A stretch of 64,000 bases of DNA from Thermoleophilia bacterium. GTDB lineage: Bacteria; Actinomycetota; Thermoleophilia; Gaiellales; F1-60-MAGs149. The notes beneath the pieces are model-generated. The model was given only the letters and a program-made list of their open reading frames with translations, was not told where the DNA came from and made no database searches. The stretch is taken from the NCBI GenBank assembly GCA_037133755.1, contig JBAXNN010000008.1:30245-94244 (forward strand). Reading direction: 5' to 3'. Shown here piece by piece: positions 4,252 to 20,781 of this stretch. Positions within the stretch are counted from its first letter, which is position 1, and every line of letters starts with the position of its first letter. The position numbers were made by a program, and so were the translations under genes.

Positions 4252-6209
4252 TAGTCGCCCGCCACCAGTTCGCGGTCGGCGTAGGCGGTCATGGTCTGCT
4301 CGCCCTTGGCGAGCTTCTCGACCTTGATCGCGCAGGCCTTGAACTCGGCGGTGCCACTCTTCTCGTCGACGGCGTCGATCGTCAGCTGGTTCACGTCGAC
4401 CTGGTCGGGGAAGTGGAACGTCATGAAGCCAAGACCAGGACGCAGCCGGACGTCGGTGCGGACCGGCGACTCGACGGTGCCACGGCGCGAGGAGACGCGC
4501 ACGATCTCGCCGTCTTCGAGGTTCATGCGCTCCATGTCCTCGGGGCACAGCTCGAGGAACTCGCCGGCGTGCAGCGGGCTCGTGAACTTCTCGGTCTGGA
4601 CGCCCGTGTTGTACGACTCGAGGCGACGACCCGTGGTGAGACGGATCGGGAACTCGGCGTCGGTCGCCTCGAACGGCGGGCGATCGTGCACCGGCACGAA
4701 CGGCGCGAGCATGCCCTGCACCGGGTCGGCCCAGAGACGCTCGTGCAGACGCGGCGAGCCAGCGTGGCCCTCCTCGGGGCACGGCCATTGGATGCCACCG
4801 AGCTCCTCGAGCCGCGCGTACGACATGCCGGTGTGCATCGGCGAGAGCGAGCGCAGCTCGTTCCAGATGTCCTCGCTGGTCGGGTAGTTCCAATCGAAGC
4901 CCAGGCGCTTGGCCAGCTCGGTGAGGATCCACTGGTCGTCCATGGCCTCGCCCGGCGGGTCGAGCGCCTTGCGCACGCGCTGGACGCGACGCTCGGAGTT
5001 CGTGACGGTGCCGTCGGACTCGCACCACGAGGCAGAGCCCGGCAGGATCACGTCGGCGAGCTCGGCCGTCTTCGTCGCGAAGATGTCCTGCACGACAAGG
5101 AAGTTGAGGCCGCCCAGCAGGGTGCGGATGCGGTTCGAATCGGCGTCGGACTGGGCCGGGTTCTCGCCGATGATGTAGCAGTACTTCAGCTCCCCGGTCT
5201 CCATGCCGTGGAACATCTGCGTGAGGTGCCAGCCGTAGCGATCACGGATCGGCACGCCGTAGGCCTGCGAGAACTTCTCGCGTGCCTCGTGGTTGTTCTC
5301 GATGTCCTGGAAGCCCGGCAGGCGATTCGGGATCGCGCCCATGTCGCCGCCGCCCTGCACGTTGTTCTGGCCGCGCAGCGGGTTGAGGCCCGAGCCGTAG
5401 CGCCCGACGTGGCCGCAGAGCAGGGCCAGGGAGATCAGGCTGAGGACGTTGTCGACGCCCGTGTGGTGCTCGGTGATACCGAGCGTCCACGAGATCATCG
5501 CGCGGTCGGCCTTGGCGTAGGCGTGGGCGACCTCGCGGATCGCCTCGGCCGGTACGCCGGTCAGCTCCTCGGCACGCTCGAGCGTGTACTCGGCGACGTG
5601 CTTTCGATAGTTCTCGAAGTTCTCCGTGGAGTGCTCGATGAAGGCCCTGTTGGCGAGACCCGCTTGGATGATCTCGTTGGCCATGGCGTTGGCGAGGGCG
5701 ATGTCCGAGCCGACGTTATTGCCGAGCCAGATGTCGGCCCACTGGGCGGTCTCAGAACGGCGGGGATCGACGACGAAGAGCCGCGCACCGTTGTGAATGC
5801 CCTTGAGGACGTGATGGAAGAAAATCGGATGTGCGTTGCGGGCGTTCGAGCCCCACAGCAGGATGACGTCGGTGTCGTGATACTCCTCATACGAAGAGGT
5901 TCCGCCACCCGCTCCAAAGACAGTCGCCAGACCGACGACGCTAGGAGCGTGTCAAGTTCTGTTACATGAGTCGACGTTGTTCGACCCCATCACCTGACGG
6001 GTGAACTTGCCGGCGAGGTAGTTGACCTCGTTGGAGGCCTTCGAGCACGAGAACATGCCGTAGCTCTTCGATGTGTCGAGGTCGCGCGCAGGCGCGAGGC
6101 CGGCGGCGGCGTAATCGAGCGCCTCCTCCCAGCTGGCGGGTCGGAACTCGCCGTTCTCCTTGATCCATGGGTGCGTCAGGCGCCCCTTGGGCAGTTTCGT
6201 CGTCGTCAT
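4251..6209 (-). CDS. fdhA: Formate dehydrogenase catalytic (molybdopterin) subunit, selenocysteine-containing; lacks its own FS0 domain
   Basis: ORFs 5952..6527 and 4251..5684 join in frame across TGA 5954..5952: ..NNVDSCNRT-U-HAPSVVGLATVFGAGGGTSSYEEY... ATG 6209 (MTTTKLPKGRLTHPWIKENGEFRPASWEEALDY) has GGAGG 9 nt upstream. Typical MopB and C-terminal barrel blocks are present: NPLRGQNNVQGGGDMG, IGENPAQSDAD, LTTGRRLESYNTG. Confidence 0.88.
5911..5954 (-). ncRNA. Sec UGA codon plus bacterial SECIS-like stem-loop inside the fdhA mRNA
   Basis: The mRNA reads UGA CAC GCU CCU AGC GUCGUC GGUCU GGCGAC UGUCUUU GGAGC. The upper 6-bp stem (5939..5923) closes a GGUCU loop that starts 12 nt after UGA. 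The lower stem pairs GCUCC with GGAGC. Register and loop resemble the E. coli fdhF SECIS core. Confidence 0.7.
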
Positions 6210-7224: not shown

Positions 7225-9114
7225 TCAGGGCGTGAGTTCGATGCGGCGGCCGATCGCCGTCAAGAGCTCGGGTGGCACGCCGAAGAACTCGGGACGCCCC
7301 TGGGAGAAGCGATGCATGGCGGCGAACAGATACAGCGGGACCGAGCGCAGTCCCCTGCCCTTGACGGCCACGGAGTCGCGCCCGATGAGGTAATCGGCCA
7401 CCTGTGGATCGAATGGCTCGCCCAGCGCGAGTCGCCCCAGTGCCGCAGGCACGTCAGGTTGCTCGGTGAACCCGAAGCGAAGCGCAATGCGCTGCACGCC
7501 GTGCTGCAGCACAACAACCTCGGCGCGCTCCGCCTCCGGAACCACGGGAACCTCGGTTGTGCTGATCGAGACGATCAGCGTGCGCTCGTAGATGCCTCCG
7601 GTGCGATCGGCCAGTTTCATCAGCGTCCCAGGCGCCACCTCCGGCTCACGCACGAGGAAGACACCCGTACCACGCAACCGGCCGCGGGCCGATGGCGGCA
7701 ACGTGGCCAGGAATCCGTCCAGCGGCACGGCGTGAGCCGCCGCCTCGGCCAGCAAGCGATCACGCCCCGTCGACCACGAGCGGACGACGAAGAAGATCAC
7801 CACGGCGATGGAGACGGTGAACCACGCGCCGTGCACGATCTTGATCACGTTCGACGAGAAGAACAGGATGTCGACGACACCGAGCGGTACGTAGACGAGC
7901 GCCACGACCAGCGGCGACCAACGCCAGACCGTGCGAGCCACGATCGCCGCGAGGATCGTCGTGCAGATCAGGGTGCCAGTGACCGTCAGGCCGTACGCCA
8001 CGACGAGACGGGATGAGGACTGGAAGATCAGCACCGTCGCCGCCACGCCGATGAACATGATCAGCGTGATCACGGGGATGTTGATCTGCCCGCGGATCGT
8101 CTTCGAGGTGTGGACGATCGGCAGGCGCGGCAGAAATCCCATCTGCATCGCCTGCTGCGTCAGCGAGTACATGCCCGTGATGACCGCCTGCGACGCGATC
8201 ACCGTCGCCAGCGTGGCGAGCACGACCATCGGCAGCATCAGTCCGTCGGGAACCAGCGCGTAGAAGGGGTTGTTGATCTTACGCGGATCGTCCAGAACCA
8301 ATGCGCCCTGTCCGAGATAACACAGCACCAGTGCTGGGAAGACGATCACCGACCACGAGATCGTGATGGGTGGACGCCCGAAGTGCCCCATGTCGGCGTA
8401 CAACGCCTCGACACCGGTGATCGCGAGGGTGACCGCACCAAGCGCGAGGAACGTCATTGTCGGCTCGCGCAGCGCGAGGTCGATCGCATAGGTGGGACTG
8501 ATCGCCCGCAGCACCGAGGGGTTCTGCACGATCTGCACGATGCCGAGTGCCGAGATCACGGTGAACCAGAGAAGCATGATCGGCCCGAACACGCGCCCGA
8601 TGCTCCCTGTGCCCCAGCGCTGCATCATGAAGAGGAGCGTCAGGATGACCAACGCGATCTCGGTCTCGTACTCCTGCAATCCGCTATTGATGAGCGATGC
8701 TCCCTCGATCGCCGACAGCACCGACACGCTCGGCGTGAGTACCGCGTCGGCGGCGAAGAGCGCGATCGCGAGCATGCTGAGGAAGATGACCAGCGCCCGG
8801 CGTCGCCCCCGGACGAGAGGCTCAACGAGGGCGCCCAGCGCCAAGGTGCCGCCCTCGCCGTTGTTCGATGCCCGCATCACAACGATCACGTACTTGATGG
8901 TGACCACGATGATGAGCGCCCAGACGAACAGTGAGAGCGCACCAAGCACGGATGGCTCGTCGACGGTGAGGCCGATATCGGGGCCGAACGCGGCCTGGAA
9001 GGCGTAGAGCGGGCTGGTGCCGATGTCGCCGTAAATGACACCGAGCGCGGCGAGGACAAGCAGCGCGACCGCGCCGCGTCGCGGCGTGCCCTGGTGACGA
9101 TTCGCATGCGGCAT
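7225..9114 (-). CDS. kup: KUP/HAK/KT-family potassium uptake transporter
   Basis: 629 aa and polytopic. N-terminal signature GVIYGDIGTSPLYAF; GEGGTLAL; a C-terminal cytosolic domain. Confidence 0.9.
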   Translation of the reverse strand: MPHANRHQGTPRRGAVALLVLAALGVIYGDIGTSPLYAFQAAFGPDIGLTVDEPSVLGALSLFVWALIIVVTIKYVIVVMRASNNGEGGTLALGALVEPLVRGRRRALVIFLSMLAIALFAADAVLTPSVSVLSAIEGASLINSGLQEYETEIALVILTLLFMMQRWGTGSIGRVFGPIMLLWFTVISALGIVQIVQNPSVLRAISPTYAIDLALREPTMTFLALGAVTLAITGVEALYADMGHFGRPPITISWSVIVFPALVLCYLGQGALVLDDPRKINNPFYALVPDGLMLPMVVLATLATVIASQAVITGMYSLTQQAMQMGFLPRLPIVHTSKTIRGQINIPVITLIMFIGVAATVLIFQSSSRLVVAYGLTVTGTLICTTILAAIVARTVWRWSPLVVALVYVPLGVVDILFFSSNVIKIVHGAWFTVSIAVVIFFVVRSWSTGRDRLLAEAAAHAVPLDGFLATLPPSARGRLRGTGVFLVREPEVAPGTLMKLADRTGGIYERTLIVSISTTEVPVVPEAERAEVVVLQHGVQRIALRFGFTEQPDVPAALGRLALGEPFDPQVADYLIGRDSVAVKGRGLRSVPLYLFAAMHRFSQGRPEFFGVPPELLTAIGRRIELTP

Positions 9115-9160: not shown

Positions 9161-11071
9161 TCAGATCTCGACGCGCGCGCCCATCGTGACCGTGTGATCC
9201 GGGGGCACGTGGAAGAAGTCCGTCGAGACCTGTGCGTGGCGATGGAGCAGCGCGAAGACGCGGCGCGGGAAGCCGATGAAGCCGCGGGACGTGACAGCAA
9301 CGGTGTCGCGGCCAACGAAGTACGACGTCGTCTCCGGGTCGATGTGGGGTCCGATCGCGCTCGCCTCGAGCGCGACGGGGACGTTCGGCGACTCGGCAAA
9401 GCCGAAGCGCAGGAACACGCGCCACAGGCCCGGGCTGATCTCCGTCGCCTCAGAGCGATTGGCATCGGTCGCGTACGGCGTGTCAAGCGTCTGCACGGTC
9501 AGCAGCACAGTCAGCTCGTGGATGCGGCCGAAGTTGCGGATCGTGGCGATCAGCGGGCGTGGCACATGGGTGGACGAGGCGACGAGGAACACGCCGGTGC
9601 CCTCCGTGCGCTTGTACTTGCCGGCCGCGACCTTCTCGGTGAAGTCATCGGCCGGCACGGCCTCGCGCGAGAGCGCGCGCATCATCGCCGTGCGTCCCGT
9701 CGACCACGACGAGATGATGATGAACAGGATTGTCGCGACGACCAGCGAGAACCACGCGCCGTGCGGGATCTTCGACATGTTGGCAGTGAAGAACGCGACG
9801 TCGACGATGCCGAGCGGTCCGAAGATCAGCACGATGCGCCACTTCGGCCAGTGCCAGAGGTGGAAGGCGACGATCACGGCGAGGACCGTGGTGCACACCA
9901 ACGTACCGGTGACGGCGAGACCATAGGCCGCCGCGAGGTGCTCGGAAGACTTGAAGATCAGGATCGTCGCAACCACCGCGAGGTACTGGAACAGCGTGAT
10001 GACGGGCATGAAGATCTGGCCGCGCACCGTCGCCGACGTCTGCAGCACCTTCATGCGCGGCAGCAGGCCGAGCTGCATCGCCTGGCGCGTCACGGAATAG
10101 GCGCCCGAGATGACGGCTTGGGACGCGATCACCGTGGCGAGCGTGGCGAGGATCACGACCGGAATCTCGATCCCACCCGGCACGAGGTGGTAGAAGGGAT
10201 TGTCGATCAGCTGCGGATTCTCGAGCAGCAGCGCGCCCTGACCGAGGTAGCAGAGCGTGAGACTCGGGAAGACGATCAGCAGCCACGACAGCGTGATCGG
10301 CGGGCGGCCGAAATGCCCCATGTCCGCGTACAGCGCCTCGGCACCGGTGATCGCGAGCGTGACCGCACTGAGCGCGCCGAACGACAGCAGCGGATGGGCG
10401 ACGATGAACTCGAAGGCGTAGATCGGCAGGATCGCGCGCACCACGGTCGGGTTCTCGCGGATGCCGTTGATGCCAATACCCGCGATGACGAGAAACCAGA
10501 CGAGCATGATCGGGCCGAACAGGCGGCCGACCTTCTCCGTGCCGAAGCGCTGGCCGAGGAAGAGCGTCGTCAGAATCACGAGCGCGATCACGATCGCATA
10601 CCGCTCGATCTCGGGAAACTTGAGGCCTGCGCCTTCGACAGCTGACAGCACCGAGATGCTCGGTGTCAGCACCGCGTCGCTCATGAAGAGCGAGACCGCG
10701 AGGATGCCGACGATGATCACCATCGTGCGCGTCTTGTTCTGCACGAAGCGCAGCGCGAGCGACTGAAGCGCCAGATCGCCGCCCTCCCCCTTGTTGTTGG
10801 CGCGCGTCACGATGATCACGTACTTGATCGTCACGACGATGATCAGTGCCCAGATGAACATCGAGAGGAGGCCGAGGATGTCCTGCTCGTTCGGCTTCAT
10901 GCCGAACGTCGAGCTGAAGGCCACCTGCATCGCGTAGAGCGGGCTCGTGCCGATGTCGCCGTAGATCACCCCGAGCGCGCCGAGCGCGAGGAGTGGCAGT
11001 GGCCCGTGCGGGACATGGCTGCCTCCGGAGGTGGCGTGGTTCGAATCGGACAATGCAGTGCGGCGTCGCAT
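9161..11071 (-). CDS. kup: KUP/HAK/KT-family potassium uptake transporter (tandem paralogue)
   Basis: ORF 9161..11110. The start is uncertain (ATG 11071 MRRRTALSD.. or 11110). Motifs GVIYGDIGTSPLYAM and GEGGDLAL. Colinear with the downstream kup. Confidence 0.88.
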   Translation of the reverse strand: MRRRTALSDSNHATSGGSHVPHGPLPLLALGALGVIYGDIGTSPLYAMQVAFSSTFGMKPNEQDILGLLSMFIWALIIVVTIKYVIIVTRANNKGEGGDLALQSLALRFVQNKTRTMVIIVGILAVSLFMSDAVLTPSISVLSAVEGAGLKFPEIERYAIVIALVILTTLFLGQRFGTEKVGRLFGPIMLVWFLVIAGIGINGIRENPTVVRAILPIYAFEFIVAHPLLSFGALSAVTLAITGAEALYADMGHFGRPPITLSWLLIVFPSLTLCYLGQGALLLENPQLIDNPFYHLVPGGIEIPVVILATLATVIASQAVISGAYSVTRQAMQLGLLPRMKVLQTSATVRGQIFMPVITLFQYLAVVATILIFKSSEHLAAAYGLAVTGTLVCTTVLAVIVAFHLWHWPKWRIVLIFGPLGIVDVAFFTANMSKIPHGAWFSLVVATILFIIISSWSTGRTAMMRALSREAVPADDFTEKVAAGKYKRTEGTGVFLVASSTHVPRPLIATIRNFGRIHELTVLLTVQTLDTPYATDANRSEATEISPGLWRVFLRFGFAESPNVPVALEASAIGPHIDPETTSYFVGRDTVAVTSRGFIGFPRRVFALLHRHAQVSTDFFHVPPDHTVTMGARVEI

Positions 11072-11153
11072 ACGGCCGGCGCCGGCTGAGTATACCGCCG
11101 CTGCGAACAAACCCCTGCCATAGTTCAGCGATGGCGTTGAAAGGATTCACCCA

Positions 11154-12605
11154 GTGTTCGTGAACAAGACCCCGCGTTTCGAGCCCCTCTCCGAGGACGC
11201 ACTCGACACCATCGACCGAGGCTGGAAGCGCCTCGTCTCCGAGGTCGGGATCAAGTTCGTGCACGAGCCGTCGCTCGAGCTCTTTCGCCGCGAGGGCCAG
11301 CGCGTCGAGGACGAGGTGGTCTTCTTCGACCCCGAGTGGATTCTTGAGAAGATCAAGACGACGCCGACCGAGTTCCGCCTGATCTCGCGCAACCCGGACA
11401 AGAACGTGCAGTTCGGCCGCGACAACATGGTCTTCTGCACCGGCCAGTCGATGCCGTTCTGCGACGACGGCGTCACGGGCCGCCGCGACGGCACGCTCGC
11501 CGATGCCGTCCAGCTGCTGCGCGCCGCACAGATGACGCCCGAGATCGACACGCCCGGCTATCCGATCATCGAGGTCAACGACAAGCCGATCGATTCGCGC
11601 CATCTCGACCTGCAGCTCGCGATGTACGAGAACACCGACCTCCCCGTCGGCGCTGCGCAGATCCACCTCAACGGCGTGATCGACTCGATCGCGATGGCCG
11701 AGATGGTGCTCGGCGGCCCCGAGGTGCTCGAGAAGGACGCCGCGGTCTTCGGCACGATCAACGCGAACTCGCCGCTGATGTTCGATACGCGCATGCTCGA
11801 GTCGCTGTGGATGCTCGCCGAGCGCAATCAGATCGTCAACATCACGCCGTTCATCATGATGGGCGCGATGGGTCCGGTCGCCGTGCCGGCCGCACTCGCA
11901 CAGCAGACCGCCGAGTCGCTGGCGGGCATTGCGCTCGTCCAGGCGATCCGCCCGGGCTGCCCCGCGATCATGGGCTCGTTCGTCTCGAACACCGACATGA
12001 AGTCCGGCTCGCCCGGCTTCGGCGGCCCCGAGGCAGCACTTGGCATCCTCGCCACCGGCCAGATCGCGCGTCGCCACAACGTCCTGTGGCGCGCCGGCGG
12101 TGGTGGCCTCAACGCCAGCCCGGCCGTGGATGGACAGTCGGCCTTCGAGTCGCTCAACACGATGGCCCAGTCGTTTCTCGCCGGCGCCAACCTCCAGCTG
12201 CACACCACCGGCTGGCTCGAGGGCGGCCTCGTGCACTCGTTCGCCAAGGTCGCGATGGACACCGAGATGCTGCGCAACCTGATCGCGGAGTTCACGCCGA
12301 TCGAATGGACCGACGAGAACCTCGCCTTCGAGGCGCATGCCGAGGTTGGCCACGCCGGCCACTTCTTCGGTGCCGCGCACACGCTGGAGAACTTCCGCGA
12401 CTGCTTCTATCGCCCGACGGTCTGGACGACAGACAACTACTCGGCGTGGACGAAGAAGGGCGGCAAGAACGCCACCGAGCGCGCACTCGACGAGTTCAAT
12501 CGTTTGCAGGAGGCATGGGCAGAGAACCCGCCCACGCTCGACCCCGATCTTCACGCCGAGCTGAAGGCGTACACGGATCGGCGTCGCACCGAGCTCGGCG
12601 ACTAA
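11154..12605 (+). CDS. MttB-superfamily (COG5598) methyltransferase, non-pyrrolysine type (quaternary/tertiary amine methyltransferase candidate)
   Basis: 483 aa from a GTG start with no in-frame TAG. The length and blocks (NANSPLMFD, ITPFIMMGAMGPVAVPAALAQ, GSPGFGGPEAA, GANLQLHTTGWLEGGL, GHFFGAAHTLENF) fit my recollection of trimethylamine methyltransferase-family proteins. Confidence 0.75.
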   Translation: MFVNKTPRFEPLSEDALDTIDRGWKRLVSEVGIKFVHEPSLELFRREGQRVEDEVVFFDPEWILEKIKTTPTEFRLISRNPDKNVQFGRDNMVFCTGQSMPFCDDGVTGRRDGTLADAVQLLRAAQMTPEIDTPGYPIIEVNDKPIDSRHLDLQLAMYENTDLPVGAAQIHLNGVIDSIAMAEMVLGGPEVLEKDAAVFGTINANSPLMFDTRMLESLWMLAERNQIVNITPFIMMGAMGPVAVPAALAQQTAESLAGIALVQAIRPGCPAIMGSFVSNTDMKSGSPGFGGPEAALGILATGQIARRHNVLWRAGGGGLNASPAVDGQSAFESLNTMAQSFLAGANLQLHTTGWLEGGLVHSFAKVAMDTEMLRNLIAEFTPIEWTDENLAFEAHAEVGHAGHFFGAAHTLENFRDCFYRPTVWTTDNYSAWTKKGGKNATERALDEFNRLQEAWAENPPTLDPDLHAELKAYTDRRRTELGD

Positions 12606-12611
12606 CGCCTC

Positions 12612-13436
12612 ATGGTCGTCCTGTTCGGCTTGGTCACGGCCTTCTCGTGGGCGTTCGCCAACGTGTTCACGCAACAGGCGAGCCGGACCAAGACCAAGCC
12701 GGCGGTGATCATGTTCTGGGTCTTGATCGTGACGGCAGCAGTGGTGCTGCCCGTCGCACTGGTCGTCGATCGCCTCGAGGGCCCGTGGACCCCAGCCGGG
12801 TTGGGCTGGCCCATTCTCGCCGGCCTGCTCGCCACCGTCGGCTTCTTCCTGCTGCTGCGCGCGCTGACGAAGGGCAGCCTGAGCGTCGTCGCGCCGATCA
12901 TCGCCCTCGAGGGCGGTGTCGCGACGCTGCTGTCGATCGCGCTTGGTGAGCGCCCATCGGCCGTCCAGTACGTGTTGCTTGGCGTGGCGGTCGTCGGCGC
13001 CTTCCTCGTGGCGGTCGAGCCGGGCCGCCGCACGGCGGCTGGGGCTCCCGAAGCGGTACTCGCAGCGTTCGCCTACGCCGGCGTGCTGATCGCGCTCGGC
13101 CAGTCGAACCTGCCCGACCTGACCACCGTCGGCGTCACGCGAACCGTCAGCGTGCTCGCGATCCTGCCGGCGTTCCTCCTGGTACGCGAGCTGCCGAAGC
13201 GCACGAACGTCTACCCGATTCTCTGGTGCGGCCTGCTCGACGCGGTCGGCTTCGCCTTCTTCGCCTTTGCCGCGTCGATCGGTCCGCTCTCGGTCGCCTC
13301 GGTGACGGCCACGCAGTGGGGCACGGCCGCGGCGCTGATCGGCATCATCGGCATGCGCGAGCGGCTGTACACGAACCAGTACATCGGCATCGCGGTCACG
13401 CTCTTCGCAGTGACCGGGCTCGGGCTCTTGTCCTAG
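12612..13436 (+). CDS. EamA/DMT-family transporter
   Basis: 274 aa with about 10 hydrophobic helices in two EamA-like halves. Starts 6 nt after the mttB-like stop. Confidence 0.75.
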   Translation: MVVLFGLVTAFSWAFANVFTQQASRTKTKPAVIMFWVLIVTAAVVLPVALVVDRLEGPWTPAGLGWPILAGLLATVGFFLLLRALTKGSLSVVAPIIALEGGVATLLSIALGERPSAVQYVLLGVAVVGAFLVAVEPGRRTAAGAPEAVLAAFAYAGVLIALGQSNLPDLTTVGVTRTVSVLAILPAFLLVRELPKRTNVYPILWCGLLDAVGFAFFAFAASIGPLSVASVTATQWGTAAALIGIIGMRERLYTNQYIGIAVTLFAVTGLGLLS

Positions 13437-14185
13437 ACGCGACGCTGGAGCGCGGCGACCGAGGCGGTCGATAGCGGCTCGCGCGTGATGCCCGTCGTTC
13501 CGCCACGCGTGGCGAAGGCGGTGATGCGGCCGGCGCGCTCGCCGTGATGCGCGAGCAGGCGGTGACGGCGGATGTCGTGCACGAGGAAGTCGACGGTCGC
13601 GGCGAGGCCATCGACCACGGTGACGTCACCGGCCAGCTCGCGTACCTCATCGGCGTCGACGTACGCGCTCGGCGTGAGCAATAGGAGCACCGCTACCTCG
13701 GGCGCGTGCTTGCGGACGCGCATGAGCAGATCGCGGGCGGGATCGGTACCGCGCTCGATCAGCGTGACGCTACCGCCGCCGCGCAGCGTGCGGATCGCCT
13801 TGGCCAGCACCATCGTCTTGACCTCGTCGGACGAGAACACCGCGGCGATCGGGCGCCCCTTCGCCTCGGCCAGGGCCGCGCGCAGGCCGCACTCCAGTCC
13901 CCGTACGGAGATGCCCTCGAACTCGGGTCGCGCCTCGAAGGATGCGAAGCCGCCGGCGAGCAGCAGCGCCTTGGCGCCCTCATCGAGGAGCCCCGTCGCG
14001 AGATCGTGCACGCGCCGCGTCACCTGATCGGGCCGCCGGCCCGCGTACGGCGCGAACGCCTGGTCGGCGACGACGAGGATGTCCTCCTTCGGCAGTTGGG
14101 CGCGCAGGAGCTCGGCTCCGCGCACGCCCTCCCAGCCCTCGGCGACGACCCCGATCGAACCTGCCGGGTCGGCGCTCCAGGTCAC
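13433..14185 (-). CDS. Glutamate-racemase-like (Asp/Glu racemase fold) protein lacking both catalytic cysteines
   Basis: ORF 13433..14311 trimmed to GTG 14185, which overlaps the upstream TGA. SIGVVAEGWEGVRGAELLRAQLPKEDILVVADQAFAPYAGRRPDQV..AKALLLAGGFASFEA aligns by eye with MurI IGVxDSGVGGL..LP.E.IIYxGDTARxPYG..[12 protein letters not shown]. The CNTA motif is replaced by GGFA and GCTHYP by LTPSAY. Confidence 0.5.
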   Translation of the reverse strand: MTWSADPAGSIGVVAEGWEGVRGAELLRAQLPKEDILVVADQAFAPYAGRRPDQVTRRVHDLATGLLDEGAKALLLAGGFASFEARPEFEGISVRGLECGLRAALAEAKGRPIAAVFSSDEVKTMVLAKAIRTLRGGGSVTLIERGTDPARDLLMRVRKHAPEVAVLLLLTPSAYVDADEVRELAGDVTVVDGLAATVDFLVHDIRRHRLLAHHGERAGRITAFATRGGTTGITREPLSTASVAALQRRV

Positions 14186-15348
14186 GACCGCGGTCGCTTC
14201 TTCTCCGAGTCGTAGATTGGGAATGCAGCGGCCGTCGCCTCGGCGAGAGTCCCGTCGGGAAGCGCAACCTGTACACGCGTACCGGATGCGACGAGGTCTG
14301 CCTCGATGCACGCCATGCCGATCTGCAAATCGACGCTCGGCGAACGACCCGCCGACGGCGACAGCAACGTTCCGACATTCCGACCATCGACAAAGACCTC
14401 TGCCCCGTAATCCGGTGCCTCATCTCCGTCGACGACCAGCGTCGTGAGGCGGTGCGTGATGCCCGCGGCCAGCTCATCGACCAGCGCCTGCTTGCCAACG
14501 AAGTCACCCGTATCGAGACTGATGGTCCGATCCAGATTCATGTGGAACGGCGAAGTCTCGCCCACGAAATAGTCGTAGCCGATAAAGATCAGGCCCGACT
14601 CGATCCGCAGCGACTCAACCGCAGCCAGACCGTACGGACGGATTCCGTACGCTGCACCAGCCGCGAGCAGAGCCTCCCACAACATCTCGGCGCTGTCCTT
14701 CGGCACGTAGATCTCGTAGCCGAGCTCGCCCGAGTACCCCGTGCGAGCCAAGTAGCAGCCGGCAATACCCGCGACCGTGATCGGCTCCGTCGTGAAGCGG
14801 AAGTACTTGAGCGACGCGACCTCGAAGTCCGTGAGGCCATCGATCAGGTCACGCGACTTGGGACCCTGTACCTGGACGTGCGGCCACTCCTCGGTGCGAT
14901 CGAGGATTTCGACGTCGAAACCCTGCTGCGTCGAGACACGGCGAAAGTGATCGACGTCACTCGGCAGCGCGGTCACCACGAGGATGCCGGCACCCGTCTC
15001 ATCACCGGTGTTGAAGACCACACCGTCGCCGAGCATGCAGCCGTTCTCGTCGAGAAAGCACGAGTACCGGGCCTGTCCGACGGCAAGGTCAGACATGTCG
15101 TTGGCGAAGCAGAAGTCGACGGCCTTGATCGCGTCGTTGCCGCGGAAGATCCACTTCTGCAACGGCGACTCGTCCCAAACACCAACGGTCTCGCGAACCG
15201 CATGGTGCTCGGCAAGTGGATTGCCGAAGTCGGAGATCCAATCCCAGCCCTCCCACTCGGCAAAGGTGCCACCCTGACGACGCTGAATCGCGTCAAAGGC
15301 CGTCAACCGCAGGCCTTCAGCGCCGGCTGCGTTTTCCTGATCGCTCAT
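14182..15348 (-). CDS. GcvT-like aminomethyltransferase-family (folate-binding) protein
   Basis: Part of ORF 14182..16050. ATG 15348 overlaps the upstream TGA (ATGA). MSDQENAAGAEGLRLTAFDAIQRRQGGTFAEWEGWDW..ARTGYSGELGYEIYVP..YGLAAVESLRIESGL is typical of the GcvT/DmdA fold. Confidence 0.85.
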   Translation of the reverse strand: MSDQENAAGAEGLRLTAFDAIQRRQGGTFAEWEGWDWISDFGNPLAEHHAVRETVGVWDESPLQKWIFRGNDAIKAVDFCFANDMSDLAVGQARYSCFLDENGCMLGDGVVFNTGDETGAGILVVTALPSDVDHFRRVSTQQGFDVEILDRTEEWPHVQVQGPKSRDLIDGLTDFEVASLKYFRFTTEPITVAGIAGCYLARTGYSGELGYEIYVPKDSAEMLWEALLAAGAAYGIRPYGLAAVESLRIESGLIFIGYDYFVGETSPFHMNLDRTISLDTGDFVGKQALVDELAAGITHRLTTLVVDGDEAPDYGAEVFVDGRNVGTLLSPSAGRSPSVDLQIGMACIEADLVASGTRVQVALPDGTLAEATAAAFPIYDSEKKRPRS

Positions 15349-17342
15349 GACCGCGGTCTCCTCTTCTCGGGGTCGTAGATCGGGTACGTGTCGGTGTACG
15401 CCGGGACGAGACGGCCGTCGGGCAGCGCCACCTCGACGCGATTGCCCGGCTCGGCCAGCTCGGCCTCGATGCACGCCATGCCGATCAGGCGATCGACGCT
15501 CGGCGAGCGTCCCGCCGACGGCGACAGCAGCTTGCCGACACCGCGACCGTTGACGAAGACATCGGCGCCGTAGTCCGGCGCCTCGTTGCCCGCGACGACG
15601 AGCGTCGTGAGGCGATGCGTGATGCCCGCGGCCAGCTCGTCGACGAGCGCCTGCTTGCCGTTGAAGTCGCCCGTCTCCAGGTTGATCGTCCGGTCCAGGT
15701 TCATATGGAACGGCGAGGTCAGGCCCTGGAAGTAGTCGTAGCCGATGAAGATCAGGCCCGACTCGATGCGGAGCGACTCGACGGCGGCGAGGCCGTACTG
15801 ACGGATGCCGCGCGACGCGCCCTCGTTGAGGAGCTCCTGCCAGAGCGCTTCGGCGCCGGCCTTCGGCACGTAGATCTCGTAGCCGAGCTCGCCCGAGTAG
15901 CCAGTGCGGGCCAGGTAGCAGCCCGCGATGCCGCCGATCGTGATCGGCTCCGTCGTGAAGCGGAAGTACTTGAGCGAGTCGACGTCGAAGTCGGTCATCG
16001 CGCTGATCAGCTCGCGCGACTTCGGACCCTGCACCTGGATGTGCGGCCACTCCTCGGTGCGGTCGAGGATCTCGACGTCAAAGCCCTGCTGCTTCGAGAC
16101 GCGGCGGAACTGGTCCACGTCGCTCGGCAGTGCGGTCACCACGAGGATGCCGGCACCGGTCTCGTCGCCCGTGTTGAAGGCGACGCCGTCGCCGAGCATG
16201 CGACCGTACTCGTCGACGAAGCACGAGTAGCGGGCCTGGCCGACCTGCATCGAGGCCATGTCGTTGGCGAAGCAGTAGTCGACGGCCTTGAGCGCGTCGG
16301 GTCCGCGGAAGATCCACTTCTGCAGCGGTGACTCGTCCCAGATGCCGACGGTCTCGCGGACCGCGTGGTGCTCGTCGATCGGATCGCCGAAGTCAGAGAT
16401 CCAGTCCCAGCCCTCCCACTCGGCGAAGGTGCCGCCGTTGCGGCGCAGAATCGCGTCGAAGGCTGTCTTGCGCAGACCCTCGGTCGAGACCTGCGGGGCG
16501 GGCGCCTCGACGATCGCGATGCCGGCGGCCTCAGCGGGAGGTGAACCCTCCTGATCGGCGGCAGCGACCGGGGTGTCGACGGGGATGATCACGATCGGCG
16601 CCTGGCGCAGGTCCGGCGGCTGATGGCCCGGCGGCAGCACCTCGGACACGCCCAACAGAGCGCGCGCGGCGGCCGGATTCGGCAGCGTGCGGTACTCCTC
16701 GAGGCAGCGCATAGGCTCCTGGTCGAGGTTGCGGCGGATGCGGCGATAGCGGGCCTGCGCACCGGCACCGAGGCCCGGCGTCGAGAAGATCGCCTGCTCG
16801 ACGTACGACTCAATCACCTTGTTGCCGAGCAGCTTGACGTCGGCCTCGCGGGCCTTGCCCGTGAGCGGGTTGTACAGCACGACGCACTTGATGGTGTCGA
16901 GGAACGAGTTCCACGTCGACAGCACGACGGGACCACGGACGCGAATGCCTGTCTCGGGGATCGCGAGGTGCGTGATGCGGCGGTCATTGATCGTGTGGAT
17001 CAGCGACTCAGCGGTCGGCGACATGATGCTGACGAACTTGTGCATCGGCCACACGTCGAGCTGGTTCCAGTCGCCGGGCTCGCAATCGACGCCGATCATG
17101 TACGTGTCGGCGTAGCGGAAGAAGTTCGCATTGCCCCGCGTCTCGCGCAAGTGGTCGTAGAACAGCGTGTTCGTGCCGCCGATCAGGTTCGAGCAGCCAA
17201 CGGCGTCCATCGGCGTGCCCATCACCACGCAGAAGCGGTCGCCGTTCTTGTAGCCACCGGGCCAGAGGGTGTTCAGCGGAGCGGAAACGCCGTCGCGCTC
17301 GACGGAGAAGTCCTCGGAATTGAGTGCGTAGGACGAATGCAT
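15345..17342 (-). CDS. Fusion protein: unrecognised ~255-aa N-terminal domain, Pro/Ala linker, GcvT-like aminomethyltransferase domain
   Basis: 665 aa. Residues ~288-665 are colinear and highly similar to the downstream stand-alone GcvT-like protein. Residues 1-255 (MHSSYALNSEDFSVERDGVSAPLNTLWPGGYKNGDRFCVVMGTPMDAVGCSNLIGGTNTLFYDHLRETRGNANFFRYADTYMIGVDCEPGDW..) have no nucleotide-binding motif I recognise. Confidence 0.8.
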   Translation of the reverse strand: MHSSYALNSEDFSVERDGVSAPLNTLWPGGYKNGDRFCVVMGTPMDAVGCSNLIGGTNTLFYDHLRETRGNANFFRYADTYMIGVDCEPGDWNQLDVWPMHKFVSIMSPTAESLIHTINDRRITHLAIPETGIRVRGPVVLSTWNSFLDTIKCVVLYNPLTGKAREADVKLLGNKVIESYVEQAIFSTPGLGAGAQARYRRIRRNLDQEPMRCLEEYRTLPNPAAARALLGVSEVLPPGHQPPDLRQAPIVIIPVDTPVAAADQEGSPPAEAAGIAIVEAPAPQVSTEGLRKTAFDAILRRNGGTFAEWEGWDWISDFGDPIDEHHAVRETVGIWDESPLQKWIFRGPDALKAVDYCFANDMASMQVGQARYSCFVDEYGRMLGDGVAFNTGDETGAGILVVTALPSDVDQFRRVSKQQGFDVEILDRTEEWPHIQVQGPKSRELISAMTDFDVDSLKYFRFTTEPITIGGIAGCYLARTGYSGELGYEIYVPKAGAEALWQELLNEGASRGIRQYGLAAVESLRIESGLIFIGYDYFQGLTSPFHMNLDRTINLETGDFNGKQALVDELAAGITHRLTTLVVAGNEAPDYGADVFVNGRGVGKLLSPSAGRSPSVDRLIGMACIEAELAEPGNRVEVALPDGRLVPAYTDTYPIYDPEKRRPRS

Positions 17343-17384: not shown

Positions 17385-18035
17385 CTAGTTCATACGCGCG
17401 CCGAGACGACGGTGCTCGAACTCCATCACCTTCATGTCGCGATCGCCGAGCGGCAACTCGAGCCGCAGCTGCGCGGCCTTGAGCGACCGCCCCACGTCGC
17501 CACGACGCTCATACGACGCAACGAGGTTCGACAGGATGCGCAGCGCCGTCAGGTGCACCGGCGTCTGCACGATGCGGCCCGGGGGCGGCGGATCGGCGAG
17601 CAGTACACCGCCCTTGAACGGGTCGAGCAGAATCGGATCGCCATCGCCGAACCAGCCCACGACGTAGTGCCCGGGCAGGCCGACGCCGCGGATCGGGATG
17701 CCGACGCGGCGTCCCACCTCGATCCAGACGACGCTGAGCAGGATGGGCAGGCCGCGCTTGCGTTCGAGCACCAGATCCAGCATCGAATTGTCGGGATGGT
17801 CGTAGTCCTCGACGTCGCCGAGGAAGCCCTCGCGGCGTCCCAGCACCGTGCGGAGCGCCTCGATCTGCTCGAGGCCGGTCTCCCCCACGCCGTTCAGCAC
17901 GACCTCGCCGGCCAGCCGGTCGAGCTCGGCCAGCGCCAGTTCCTGATCCACCTCGCGCAGCGCACCCGCGATCGCCAGCGCGAGCAGGTCGAGCGTGGGC
18001 GCGTCGGTGCGCGCGAGTTGTGCAAATCGGTTCAT
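17385..18035 (-). CDS. Transglutaminase-like/TPR (SirB1, UPF0162-type) protein
   Basis: ORF 17385..18086 trimmed to ATG 18035 (MNRFAQLARTD..). The block YDHPDNSMLDLVLERKRGLPILLSVVWIEVGRRVGIPIRGVGLPGHYVV matches my recollection of this family. Confidence 0.55.
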   Translation of the reverse strand: MNRFAQLARTDAPTLDLLALAIAGALREVDQELALAELDRLAGEVVLNGVGETGLEQIEALRTVLGRREGFLGDVEDYDHPDNSMLDLVLERKRGLPILLSVVWIEVGRRVGIPIRGVGLPGHYVVGWFGDGDPILLDPFKGGVLLADPPPPGRIVQTPVHLTALRILSNLVASYERRGDVGRSLKAAQLRLELPLGDRDMKVMEFEHRRLGARMN

Positions 18036-18125
18036 CTCTCGTATCTTCGCGCGTCTACCCGGCGCGAGACTGGCGCAACCCCACATCAGGGGATCCAGAC
18101 CAGCTCGGCGATCAGCGTCGATTTG

Positions 18126-18392: not shown

Positions 18393-19541
18393 TCAGAGGC
18401 CGATGCGCGCGCCCATCGGCGTCTCGACGAGCGCGAAGGGCGTGTCGGGTGCCATGCGGTCGATGCCGAAAATGTCGGCCTCGGGCCAGGCGGGCTTGCC
18501 TTCGGCGATATCGCCGATCAGCTCGCCCATGATCGGCATGAACTTAAAGGCGTGGCCGCTACAACCGGTCGCAACGGTGATGGCGCCGCGTCGCTCGATG
18601 AAGTACTCACCATCGGGCGTCATCGTCCACGGACACGATTCGGTCAGGTGCGGCCCGTCCGAGGCGAGGCCCGGTGCGTGGCTGATGACCCAGTCGCGAT
18701 TGCACTCCTCTTCGAAGCCGCGATGGGGCCACGCCGCAGCGTCAGGATCCCACGTGTCCTCGCAGCCGTAATCGAGGCCGATCTTGTAGCCCTTGCCCGG
18801 GGTCGGCAGGCCGTAAACGCCGATCTTGTCGGGCGCGTAGAAGTCGACGAGCGAAGGGCGGCGCTGCCACGCGCCGCCACCACGCCAGTACGAGACCTGG
18901 CCGATGGCGGGAGCAAGCGGCAGGCGGATGCCCAGCGGCTCGAGCAGCGTCGTAGCCCACGGACCAACCGCCAGCACGGCGATGTCCGCGTCGATCACAC
19001 GTCGATTCGTCGTCACGCGCACACCGGCTGGGGTCTCATCGACCTCGAGCATGCGCTCCGGGGTCGACAGCTCGGCGCCGGCGCTGCGCGCGGCATCGGC
19101 CATCGCGGCGAGGCCCTTGGCGGCGAACAGCACGCCATCGTCGGGCACAAACGCAGCAGCCTCCTGCGGCCGGTACGACAGTTCTGGAAAGGCGCGCTGC
19201 ACGCCATCGGCATCGAGTTCCTCGACGGGCACGCCAGCGTCGCGCATGGCGGCAACCCACGCGGGGACCGGATCGCCCCGCAACACCAGGCCCACGTGGT
19301 CGAGCAGCTGCTCACCCGACAGCGCCTCGAGCTCGCGCCATTTATCGAGCGCCTTGCGAGCCAACACGATGTCTCCGGGGCGCTCGTGCGCCAGGCGGAA
19401 GATGCGGGTAGCACCCGCCGACGAGCCCGCGGGGGCCGAGATGCCGTGGCGATCGATACCGATCACCTCGTGGCCGCGCTCGGCGAGCGCACGCGCCGTC
19501 GGCAGCCCCATCACGCCCAGCCCGACCACGACGGCCTTCAT
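18393..19541 (-). CDS. FAD-dependent oxidoreductase, monomeric sarcosine oxidase / N-methyl amino acid oxidase-like (DAO family)
   Basis: ORF 18393..19769 trimmed to ATG 19541. MKAVVVGLGVMGLPTARALAERGHEVIGIDR contains the GxGxxG motif. TGCSGHAFKFMPIMGELI resembles the MSOX/MTOX covalent-flavin cysteine region. Confidence 0.75.
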   Translation of the reverse strand: MKAVVVGLGVMGLPTARALAERGHEVIGIDRHGISAPAGSSAGATRIFRLAHERPGDIVLARKALDKWRELEALSGEQLLDHVGLVLRGDPVPAWVAAMRDAGVPVEELDADGVQRAFPELSYRPQEAAAFVPDDGVLFAAKGLAAMADAARSAGAELSTPERMLEVDETPAGVRVTTNRRVIDADIAVLAVGPWATTLLEPLGIRLPLAPAIGQVSYWRGGGAWQRRPSLVDFYAPDKIGVYGLPTPGKGYKIGLDYGCEDTWDPDAAAWPHRGFEEECNRDWVISHAPGLASDGPHLTESCPWTMTPDGEYFIERRGAITVATGCSGHAFKFMPIMGELIGDIAEGKPAWPEADIFGIDRMAPDTPFALVETPMGARIGL

Positions 19542-19545
19542 CGAT

Positions 19546-20781
19546 TCAGACCTTCGCCGCGACAGTGGCGGCGATGACGAGATCAGCGGCGCGGCGGCCA
19601 GAGCGCAGCGCGCCGTCGATCGAGGCGTTCTCGGTGCCGTCGCCCGAGAGGATGACCTTGTCGCGCAGCCAGCGCACGCCACTCGACAGCGACCCCGGCG
19701 GCTGCGCGTGCTGCGCCCACTCGATGCGATCCACGCGCAGGAGGCGCCACGTGTGCACGCGGCTGCCAAACCAGGGAGTTAGCTGCGCACGCGCCGCGGC
19801 GTCAAGCGCCGCATCGTCCCCGGCGGGCAGACCCACGCACGAGGCGGCAATCAGCGCCTGACCGGCCGGCGCGTACGACGGCGCGACGGCGCTCATCACG
19901 GCGACGTTGTTGACCGGTCCGGTGCCATCACCATCGAGCACGATGCGCTTGCCCGCGGGGGCTTCGACGGCGGCGTACCAGAGGCACGTCGAGCCGCGCG
20001 GCTCGGGCGCCGGAATGCCGGCAAGCGCGCAGGCATCGACGGTGCCAGCGGCGATCACCACAGCGTGCTTGGCCTTCAGCGTCTTGCCGGAGGCGAGCGT
20101 GACGCTGGCCTTGCCGACCTTGGTGACGCGCTCGTGTAGGTGAATGCTGCCCCCTGGCAGGCGTGCGGCAAGCTGGTCGGCGATCGCGCCCATGCCGCGT
20201 GCTGGCACGACCGTGCGGCCGGAGGCCATCTGGCTGAAGACCTGGTCGATCAGATGGCTCGAGACGTTGAGCTCGGGATCGAGGAACACGCCGCGGTAGA
20301 GCGGGCGCAGCAGACGCTCGCGGACCGACTCGGAGAAGCCGAGATCGCGCAGGCGCTGGTCTGCTGTGGTCTCCGGTGCCGTTGCGGTGGCGAGTGGCTT
20401 GGCCTGCAGCAGCCACGTGGCTGCCGCCTTGATGTCTGCTGGGCCGCCGATACCGGCCTTGACGGCCTGCGGCACAGAACGCGGATCGCGCAGCGGATGG
20501 CCGATCGTCCGCATGCGGCCGTCCCACCAGATGTCGGCGCCAGGCTGGAAGGCCTTCAGGTCGAGGGCGTCGAGATCGAGCGCGCGCTTGGCCTCGGGGT
20601 ACCCGTCAAACAGCACCTGGAAGCCGCGGTCGAGCAGAAAGCCGTCGACGTGGTCGGTACGGACGCGGCCACCGACGCCATCGGACGCCTCCACGACTTC
20701 GACGTCGATGCCGTGCTCGCGCAGCAGCGCCGCGCAGTTGAGCCCGGCGAGTCCTGCTCCGATGACGACGACGTCGGCCAT
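19546..20781 (-). CDS. NAD(P)/FAD-dependent oxidoreductase, flavin amine oxidase family
   Basis: MADVVVIGAGLAGLNCAALLREHGIDVEVVEASDGVGGRVRT is the classic amine-oxidase dinucleotide fold. There is a 4-nt gap to the downstream oxidase. Confidence 0.8.
   Translation of the reverse strand: MADVVVIGAGLAGLNCAALLREHGIDVEVVEASDGVGGRVRTDHVDGFLLDRGFQVLFDGYPEAKRALDLDALDLKAFQPGADIWWDGRMRTIGHPLRDPRSVPQAVKAGIGGPADIKAAATWLLQAKPLATATAPETTADQRLRDLGFSESVRERLLRPLYRGVFLDPELNVSSHLIDQVFSQMASGRTVVPARGMGAIADQLAARLPGGSIHLHERVTKVGKASVTLASGKTLKAKHAVVIAAGTVDACALAGIPAPEPRGSTCLWYAAVEAPAGKRIVLDGDGTGPVNNVAVMSAVAPSYAPAGQALIAASCVGLPAGDDAALDAAARAQLTPWFGSRVHTWRLLRVDRIEWAQHAQPPGSLSSGVRWLRDKVILSGDGTENASIDGALRSGRRAADLVIAATVAAKV

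Follow-up and report, generated by a model that had tools for sequence, protein, structure and literature searches.

Can a protein of the glutamate racemase (MurI) lineage shed its racemase chemistry and yet be conserved, and with which partner is it then kept? This question is raised by a gene in a stretch of 64,000 nucleotides from a Thermoleophilia bacterium of the order Gaiellales (GenBank assembly GCA_037133755.1, contig JBAXNN010000008.1, positions 30,245 to 94,244 of the forward strand), which is referred to below as the window. An earlier note, made from the letters alone, had described the gene product as a MurI homologue with both catalytic cysteines replaced, encoded by a gene coupled to upstream GcvT-like genes, and had wavered between a pseudo-enzyme subunit and a racemase-fold enzyme with altered chemistry. 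The explanation that we prefer, and that we regard as reasonably probable, is that the gene encodes a racemase-dead protein of MurI fold, which is kept as a co-translated subunit and partner of a GcvT-type enzyme of 665 amino acids (hereafter long GcvT) encoded upstream of it. The MurI-like gene and the three altered motifs of its product are located as follows.

13433..14185, minus strand, MurI-like racemase-dead protein, 250 amino acids plus stop, two-domain Asp/Glu-racemase fold
14126..14143, minus strand, AEGWEG loop (residues 15-20), which replaces MurI DSGVGG
13940..13957, minus strand, AGGFAS (residues 77-82), which replaces MurI ACNTAS
13661..13681, minus strand, LLTPSAY (residues 169-175), which replaces MurI LGCTHYP

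The catalytic residues of MurI were mapped onto the protein with three alignments that agree with each other (MAFFT, HMMER against the PDB, and hhalign), and all three reproduced the motif correspondences proposed earlier (DSGVGG to AEGWEG, CNTA to GGFA and GCTHYP to LTPSAY); hmmalign moves the third motif by 1-2 residues in some members of the family. The catalytic helper Asp and the substrate-binding Ser of DSGVGG are replaced by Ala15-Glu16, the first catalytic Cys plus Asn-Thr of ACNTAS by Gly78-Gly79-Phe80, and the second catalytic Cys-Thr-His of GCTHYP by Thr171-Pro172-Ser173, so that the claimed loss of both cysteines (Gly78 and Thr171) proved right and extends to the helper residues (Ala15-Glu16 and Ser173). 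Moreover, the substrate-binding Thr pair is replaced by Ser/Ala118 and Glu121. In the numbering of Bacillus subtilis RacE, we take the helper and substrate residues concerned to be, approximately, Asp10-Ser11, Asn75-Thr76, Thr118/Thr121 and Thr186-His187. In a joint alignment with 20 canonical MurI sequences, every invariant column that serves chemistry or substrate binding (D, S, C, N, two Thr, C, T and H) was found to be replaced, and nine residues are deleted from the xCPGLVxxVE loop, the final Glu of which is retained as Glu144. The structural invariants, namely LPxE, Asp41 (equivalent to Asp36), Pro46-Tyr47, Lys72, Ala77, Glu144 (equivalent to Glu152) and the C-terminal strand, are retained. 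The earlier note had allowed that catalytic residues might reappear in another alignment register. The only cysteine of the protein is C99, in a column that is occupied by C, A, R or T across the family, and since no Cys is conserved in the family, no alignment register restores the two-thiol mechanism, an outcome that favours the original observation.

By fold and by descent, the MurI-like protein is a divergent member of the MurI branch of the Asp/Glu/hydantoin racemase superfamily. The NCBIfam model NF002035 (glutamate racemase) matches residues 10-135 with E=1.9e-9, and a phmmer search against the PDB returned MurI structures only, the best being 5w16 (E=6.5e-8). A profile built from 19 family members matched the same Thermus MurI structure, 5w16, with E=1.6e-16 over residues 5-226, and hhalign against a profile of 20 canonical MurI sequences gave a probability of 99.9% and E=1.1e-32 over 225 columns (residues 3-228). 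The AlphaFold2 model is confident (predicted local distance difference test, pLDDT, 86.8; predicted template modelling score, pTM, 0.85), with only residues 229-250 poorly defined, and its best matches in a Foldseek search of the PDB are MurI structures: these occupy ranks 1-46 (best 5hj7, E=8e-14, TM score about 0.7), followed by arylmalonate decarboxylase (AMDase; 3dtv, rank 47, E=2.5e-6), aspartate racemase and hydantoin racemase. The racemase homology that had been aligned by eye is thus borne out by significant profile (hhalign, E=1.1e-32) and structure-based (Foldseek, E=8e-14) matches; its restriction to the N-terminal half is not, as residues 3-228 align. Pfam PF01177 gave no match to the window's protein at E<=10. 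When 23 aligned sequences were searched with it, 10 matched, of which 4 are canonical MurI and the other 6 (by subtraction) are most likely partners from the soil clade described below; a PF01177 match is on record for one such soil-clade partner, P0119.

Could the protein nevertheless be the glutamate racemase on which the organism relies for the D-glutamate of its peptidoglycan, working by an unusual cysteine-free mechanism? Nothing else in the window, in which no canonical murI was found, comes as close to MurI, and the Joint Genome Institute (JGI) calls a 94%-identical protein (P0001) a 'glutamate racemase'. Against these two points stand the replacement of all residues of the two-base mechanism and of glutamate binding, the variation of the catalytic positions among orthologues, and the position of the gene in an amine and one-carbon (C1) catabolic module instead of among cell-wall or division genes. 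In addition, the curated cut-offs for glutamate racemase are not reached, the scores lying far below them (37.5 against 328 bits for NF002035, and 21.5 against 146.65 bits for TIGR00067). We therefore consider this explanation highly improbable, and genuine MurI was ruled out as an identity for the protein, every catalytic and substrate residue being replaced. Judged by its sequence, the protein failed every functional criterion for MurI that was tested and should not be annotated as such. Given the missing catalytic residues, the JGI name of P0001 is probably an over-annotation, and one that will spread.

The loss of catalytic residues might also be expected of a decaying remnant or of an annotation artefact without function, and the gene does evolve faster than its neighbours. 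About 35 homologues were found, mostly in Gaiellales/Thermoleophilia metagenome-assembled genomes from lakes; all are about 250 amino acids long, show 56-94% identity to the window's protein and are free of frameshifts. The ratio of non-synonymous to synonymous substitution rates (dN/dS) was 0.09-0.30 in seven of eight pairwise comparisons, and 0.50 in that with the most distant sequence (L002), for which dS approaches saturation. The gene evolves under purifying selection. Between the same pairs of genomes, its dN is 2-4 times that of both domains of the partner protein; the low dN/dS indicates that the gene is kept by selection, yet it is less constrained than its partner. Length that stays constant down to 56% identity, the dN/dS values, the confidently predicted fold, and a position and translational coupling that are kept across deep clades all speak against decay, which we hold to be the least probable of the explanations considered here; a pseudogene was ruled out by dN/dS and conserved length.

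What, then, is the gene kept with? The genes directly upstream of it, on the same strand, are the following.

16473..17342, minus strand, long GcvT, N-terminal orphan domain of 290 amino acids plus a Pro/Ala-rich linker
15345..16472, minus strand, long GcvT, C-terminal GcvT-type tetrahydrofolate-binding domain of the 665-amino-acid protein, the conserved partner
14182..15348, minus strand, GcvT-B, GcvT-only protein of 388 amino acids (PF01571 plus PF08669), a lineage-specific extra copy

The MurI-like gene (250 codons) begins with a GTG at 14185 and ends with a stop codon at 13433-13435. Its GTG and the TGA of the upstream 388-amino-acid gene share the sequence GTGA, as had been described, and one gene further upstream the ATG of the 388-amino-acid gene overlaps the stop of the 665-amino-acid gene as ATGA. 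With these 4-nt overlaps at both junctions, the three genes (665, 388 and 250 amino acids) are chained. At the other end of the MurI-like gene, the sequence CTAG at 13433-13436 is shared by the stop codons of that gene and of a convergent EamA transporter gene on the plus strand, which leaves no space for an intergenic terminator between the two.

All loci that were retrieved with the MurI-like protein carry, upstream, a gene for a long GcvT of 661-665 amino acids. It is important to mention that retrieval with an alignment of MurI-like proteins reached only a freshwater clade plus unrelated canonical MurI genes. An exhaustive search of representatives added distant MurI-like proteins (P0036 and P0116-P0133) with 26-35% identity, and the contexts of six of these were examined: a GcvT gene lies directly upstream of P0036, P0116, P0122 and P0128, of the gene upstream of P0117 the contig contains no more than the final 60 codons, and a gap of 18 nt is present in the case of P0119. 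The upstream GcvT proteins of the distant loci are 64-73% identical to that of the window, with completely different surrounding genes. A protein search started from the soil-clade member P0119 gave 7 matches only, which were uninformative as to taxonomy.

The reverse retrieval was performed with the orphan N-terminal domain of long GcvT alone and yielded 79 metagenome loci, 40 of which cover the GcvT domain completely and extend for 400 nt or more downstream of it. A MurI-like open reading frame (ORF) lies directly downstream in 39 of these 40 informative loci (the copy in L126 is frameshifted), and an exact 4-nt overlap, GTGA or ATGA, was found at 42 of 66 junctions, the rest being within about 200 nt; neither count is fully independent, as some loci are repeats, from different samples, of a single population. 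Nothing but the pair of long GcvT and MurI-like protein is conserved in the divergent loci L004-L006 and L048-L050. Because retrieval from both sides finds the pair, the conserved unit is long GcvT plus the MurI-like protein. The coupling to GcvT-like genes proposed in the earlier note therefore stands, with the correction that the conserved partner is the 665-amino-acid gene and not the adjacent 388-amino-acid copy.

That copy, GcvT-B, is about 82% identical to the C-terminal part of long GcvT, keeps the 4-nt overlap at both of its ends, and was found only in the window, in its close relatives L016, L020 and L055, and probably in L017. GcvT-B is an extra copy of the GcvT module that was duplicated in this lineage and came to lie between the two conserved partners. 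PF01571 (GCV_T) is present in both upstream products (E=2.9e-61 and 8.2e-60), as is PF08669 (GCV_T_C; 7.4e-11 and 2e-9), and both proteins score below the NCBIfam cut-offs for genuine GcvT, Tdm, SoxA and DmdA. The closest solved relatives of the GcvT domain, about equally close, are the trimethylamine N-oxide (TMAO) demethylase 9q5a (E=7e-46; NF053776) and GcvT 1yx2. The orphan N-terminal domain is 60-99% identical across all loci, in freshwater as well as soil lineages, and probably provides the catalytic domain of an enzyme that has yet to be described. The motifs PMDAxGCSNLI, GNFFRYxDTY, CEPGDxNQLDVWPxHK and VGNxVxESYVEQAIFSTPG are conserved in it.

In order to place the protein within its wider family, a neighbour-joining tree was calculated with the motif columns masked. 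In this tree, which carries no bootstrap or other support values, the partner proteins form one clade beside canonical MurI, and this clade splits into a freshwater Gaiellales clade, to which the window belongs, and a broader, mostly soil clade. The Asp-Ser pair and the first catalytic Cys are absent from every member of the partner family; the first-Cys position (78) is always Ser in the soil clade and Gly, Ser, Ala or Thr in the freshwater clade. Other former catalytic positions vary among orthologous partners as well (C, T, D or S at 171; C, E, T, S or G at 121; E, S, A or T at 16). In soil-clade relatives (P0036, P0116-P0133 and L083-L129) a triad was observed that consists, in most members of the clade, of a new Cys at the position of an invariant MurI Thr (121), the second MurI Cys (171) and the MurI His (173). 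The triad behaves in an all-or-none manner: among 57 unique sequences, 26 have all three residues, 29 have none and 2 have Cys171 only. Sequences that lack it occur in at least four places within the soil clade and throughout the freshwater clade, which has Glu121, Thr171 and Ser173 instead, and several of the triad-less soil members were retrieved through the orphan N-terminal domain and are therefore still linked to long GcvT. This pattern suggests that the triad would be one functional unit, forming either a metal site or an active site invented anew, and that several lineages, that of the window among them, have lost it. We infer that it is dispensable for whatever holds the MurI-like gene beside its partner, and that the window's clade is the most stripped-down form. 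In the orphan domain of the partner, the freshwater clade lacks the cysteines at positions 55 and 135 (Gly and Val in the window), in parallel with the absence of the triad from its MurI-like protein, while soil copies always have Cys135 and have Cys or Ser at 55. A co-variation of Cys55/Cys135 with the triad of the MurI-like protein was considered and rejected, since triad-less soil members retain Cys55/Cys135 and the pattern holds at the level of clades only.

These residues are also what the altered-chemistry explanation draws on. According to it, the protein is a racemase-fold enzyme that acts beside the GcvT enzyme and whose cleft binds a substrate or intermediate of the pathway, for example for a one-base isomerisation, a decarboxylation or a hydrolysis, with Glu16, Glu121, Glu144 and Thr171 as the candidate residues in the freshwater clade and Cys121/Cys171/His173 in the soil clade. 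The co-varying triad in 26 of 36 soil-clade sequences is in its favour, as is Gly78 at the first-Cys position, which is the residue found there in AMDase, the first structure after the MurI ranks in the Foldseek search (3dtv, rank 47). However, no general base or nucleophile is conserved across the partner family, given the variation at 171, 121 and 16; the second Cys that defines AMDase is absent; the loop before the Glu152 equivalent has lost nine residues; and the MurI-like protein has diverged to 30-35% identity where long GcvT holds 64-73%. We consider this explanation unlikely on balance. For the freshwater clade, the variable former catalytic positions and an evolution 2-4 times faster than that of the partner favour a non-catalytic reading, and the lost catalytic residues, the purifying selection and the genetic coupling, taken together, would qualify the protein as a pseudoenzyme or non-catalytic subunit.

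Several observations weigh against the partner-subunit explanation and have to be set beside it. Within the freshwater clade, cleft-equivalent residues (AEGWEG, Asp41, Pro-Tyr, Glu121, Glu144 and Thr171-Pro172) are strongly conserved; this counts in favour of altered chemistry, since such conservation would likewise suit a true pocket that binds a ligand or catalyses a new reaction. Most soil-clade relatives retain the functional-looking Cys/Cys/His triad. The locus L073 (region 4890-6000) is the sole exception among the 40, with a long GcvT that has no MurI-like gene. Finally, the orphan N-terminal domain of the proposed partner has no Pfam, NCBIfam or PDB match (searched as a single sequence, and as a profile against the PDB), and its AlphaFold2 model, built from an alignment of 21 sequences, is unusable (pLDDT 42, pTM 0.37). 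As regards L073, the ORF that follows its long GcvT is unrelated and looks, by eye, nuclease- or helicase-like; the locus could be a natural knockout or a rearrangement.

The genes that surround the pair in the window point to the kind of pathway in which it may act.

7225..9114, minus strand, Kup-like ORF recognised by eye from the sequence, tandem paralogue of 9161..11110
9161..11110, minus strand, Kup-type K+ transporter (Pfam), tandem paralogue of 7225..9114
11154..12605, plus strand, non-pyrrolysine MttB-superfamily methyltransferase (PF06253, E=3e-150), syntenic in freshwater Gaiellales
12612..13436, plus strand, EamA-family transporter, convergent with the MurI-like gene, syntenic neighbour
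17385..18086, minus strand, transglutaminase-like protein (Transglut_core2), syntenic in the freshwater Gaiellales clade
18393..19535, minus strand, DAO-family FAD oxidase, similar to monomeric sarcosine oxidase (MSOX) and N-methyltryptophan oxidase, in freshwater synteny
19546..20781, minus strand, flavin amine oxidase (PF01593), syntenic in the freshwater clade

The gene order of the freshwater clade is amine oxidase, DAO/MSOX-like FAD oxidase, transglutaminase-like protein, long GcvT, GcvT-B where present, and the MurI-like gene, followed by one or more convergent EamA transporter genes and the non-pyrrolysine MttB-family methyltransferase; it is kept in roughly 20 species-level genomes. 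In the divergent loci, the pair neighbours a copper amine oxidase (L049) or a flavin amine oxidase and an amino-acid permease (L050); in L048 it lies beside an EamA transporter and an ABC transporter with an SBP_bac_8-type binding protein, and in L004 directly beside a GNAT acetyltransferase and a few genes away from a similar ABC transporter.

On the partner-subunit explanation, translational coupling would provide the MurI-like protein and long GcvT in a fixed ratio, and the two would form a stoichiometric complex. TMAO demethylase, dimethylglycine oxidase and the alpha subunit of sarcosine oxidase suggest, by analogy, that the N-terminal domain of long GcvT, possibly with the nearby amine oxidases, may split off a C1 unit from an amine or N-methyl compound; this unit may then be handed to tetrahydrofolate by the GcvT domain. 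Together the two proteins would make up a new two-component, folate-dependent enzyme of amine catabolism. In TMAO demethylase, formaldehyde from the catalytic core is tunnelled to a GcvT-like tetrahydrofolate site (PMC13619132). The MurI-like subunit itself would be a structural, regulatory or small-ligand-binding module, with a two-domain cleft that closes about a hinge and abstracts no proton. Binding of a folate polyglutamate tail by its Arg-rich motifs (R132/R135 and R217-x-G-R220) was considered as a speculation and not adopted.

A further reading, which is tentative and to our mind rather doubtful, goes beyond this in one respect: in the pair, taken as a previously undescribed two-component folate-dependent C1-releasing enzyme of Thermoleophilia/Gaiellales for an amine or N-methyl compound, the MurI-derived subunit would be an integral working part that binds substrate or metal. 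Its site would be the reinvented Cys/Cys/His triad in soil lineages and a cysteine-free acidic pocket (Glu16, Glu121 and Glu144) in freshwater ones. If this is true, the scaffold of a cell-wall racemase was recruited into C1 and amine catabolism.

The case has consequences for annotation as well as for physiology. A clade of the glutamate racemase lineage has shed racemase chemistry, yet it is conserved and tied to one partner, and a clear case of pseudoenzyme formation or neofunctionalisation is of importance here, since MurI serves as a target of antibiotics and as a standard marker in annotation; the label 'glutamate racemase' would wrongly credit genomes of this kind with D-glutamate synthesis. 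The partner, in turn, is a highly conserved enzyme with a domain of 290 amino acids without known relatives, it occurs in abundant freshwater and soil Actinomycetota, and it is set among amine oxidases, an MttB-type methyltransferase and transporters. The pair could reveal a new route from methylated or other amines to the folate C1 pool in lakes and soils. Neither a racemase nor a GcvT component is mentioned in a paper on how marine bacteria demethylate glycine betaine (PMC12478193), and in the full-text literature, the coverage of which is incomplete so that this is absence of evidence only, neither a racemase-like partner of GcvT nor a glutamate racemase pseudoenzyme was found to be described.

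Among known systems, MurI/RacE (EC 5.1.1.3; TIGR00067, NF002035 and PF01177) shares with the window's protein the two-domain alpha/beta fold and the structural residues. The window's protein differs from it in lacking the catalytic Cys pair, the Asp-Ser and His helpers, Asn-Thr and both substrate-binding Thr, in the deletion of nine residues from the CPGLV loop, and in being encoded in a catabolic operon rather than in a cell-wall context. AMDase, a member of the same superfamily, works with Gly instead of the first Cys, and its second Cys is essential. AMDase (3dtv) and the window's protein have the superfamily fold and the Gly in common, and the Gly of AMDase sets a precedent for non-racemase chemistry on this fold; the window's protein, however, has Thr in place of the second Cys, no dioxyanion-hole residues were identified in it, and MurI is a much closer relative. 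An AMDase-like one-Cys enzyme was accordingly ruled out, as Gly78 is present but the second Cys is Thr171. Long GcvT resembles Tdm (the TMAO demethylase 9q5a; NF053776), dimethylglycine oxidase and the alpha subunit of heterotetrameric sarcosine oxidase, all of which combine a catalytic module with a C-terminal GcvT domain. The Tdm model aligns only with the C-terminal GcvT part of long GcvT and leaves the N-terminal domain unmatched. Sarcosine oxidase uses small accessory subunits; neither it nor Tdm nor dimethylglycine oxidase is known to have a subunit of MurI fold. Seen against these systems, what is more novel is the two-gene module, together with its orphan domain.

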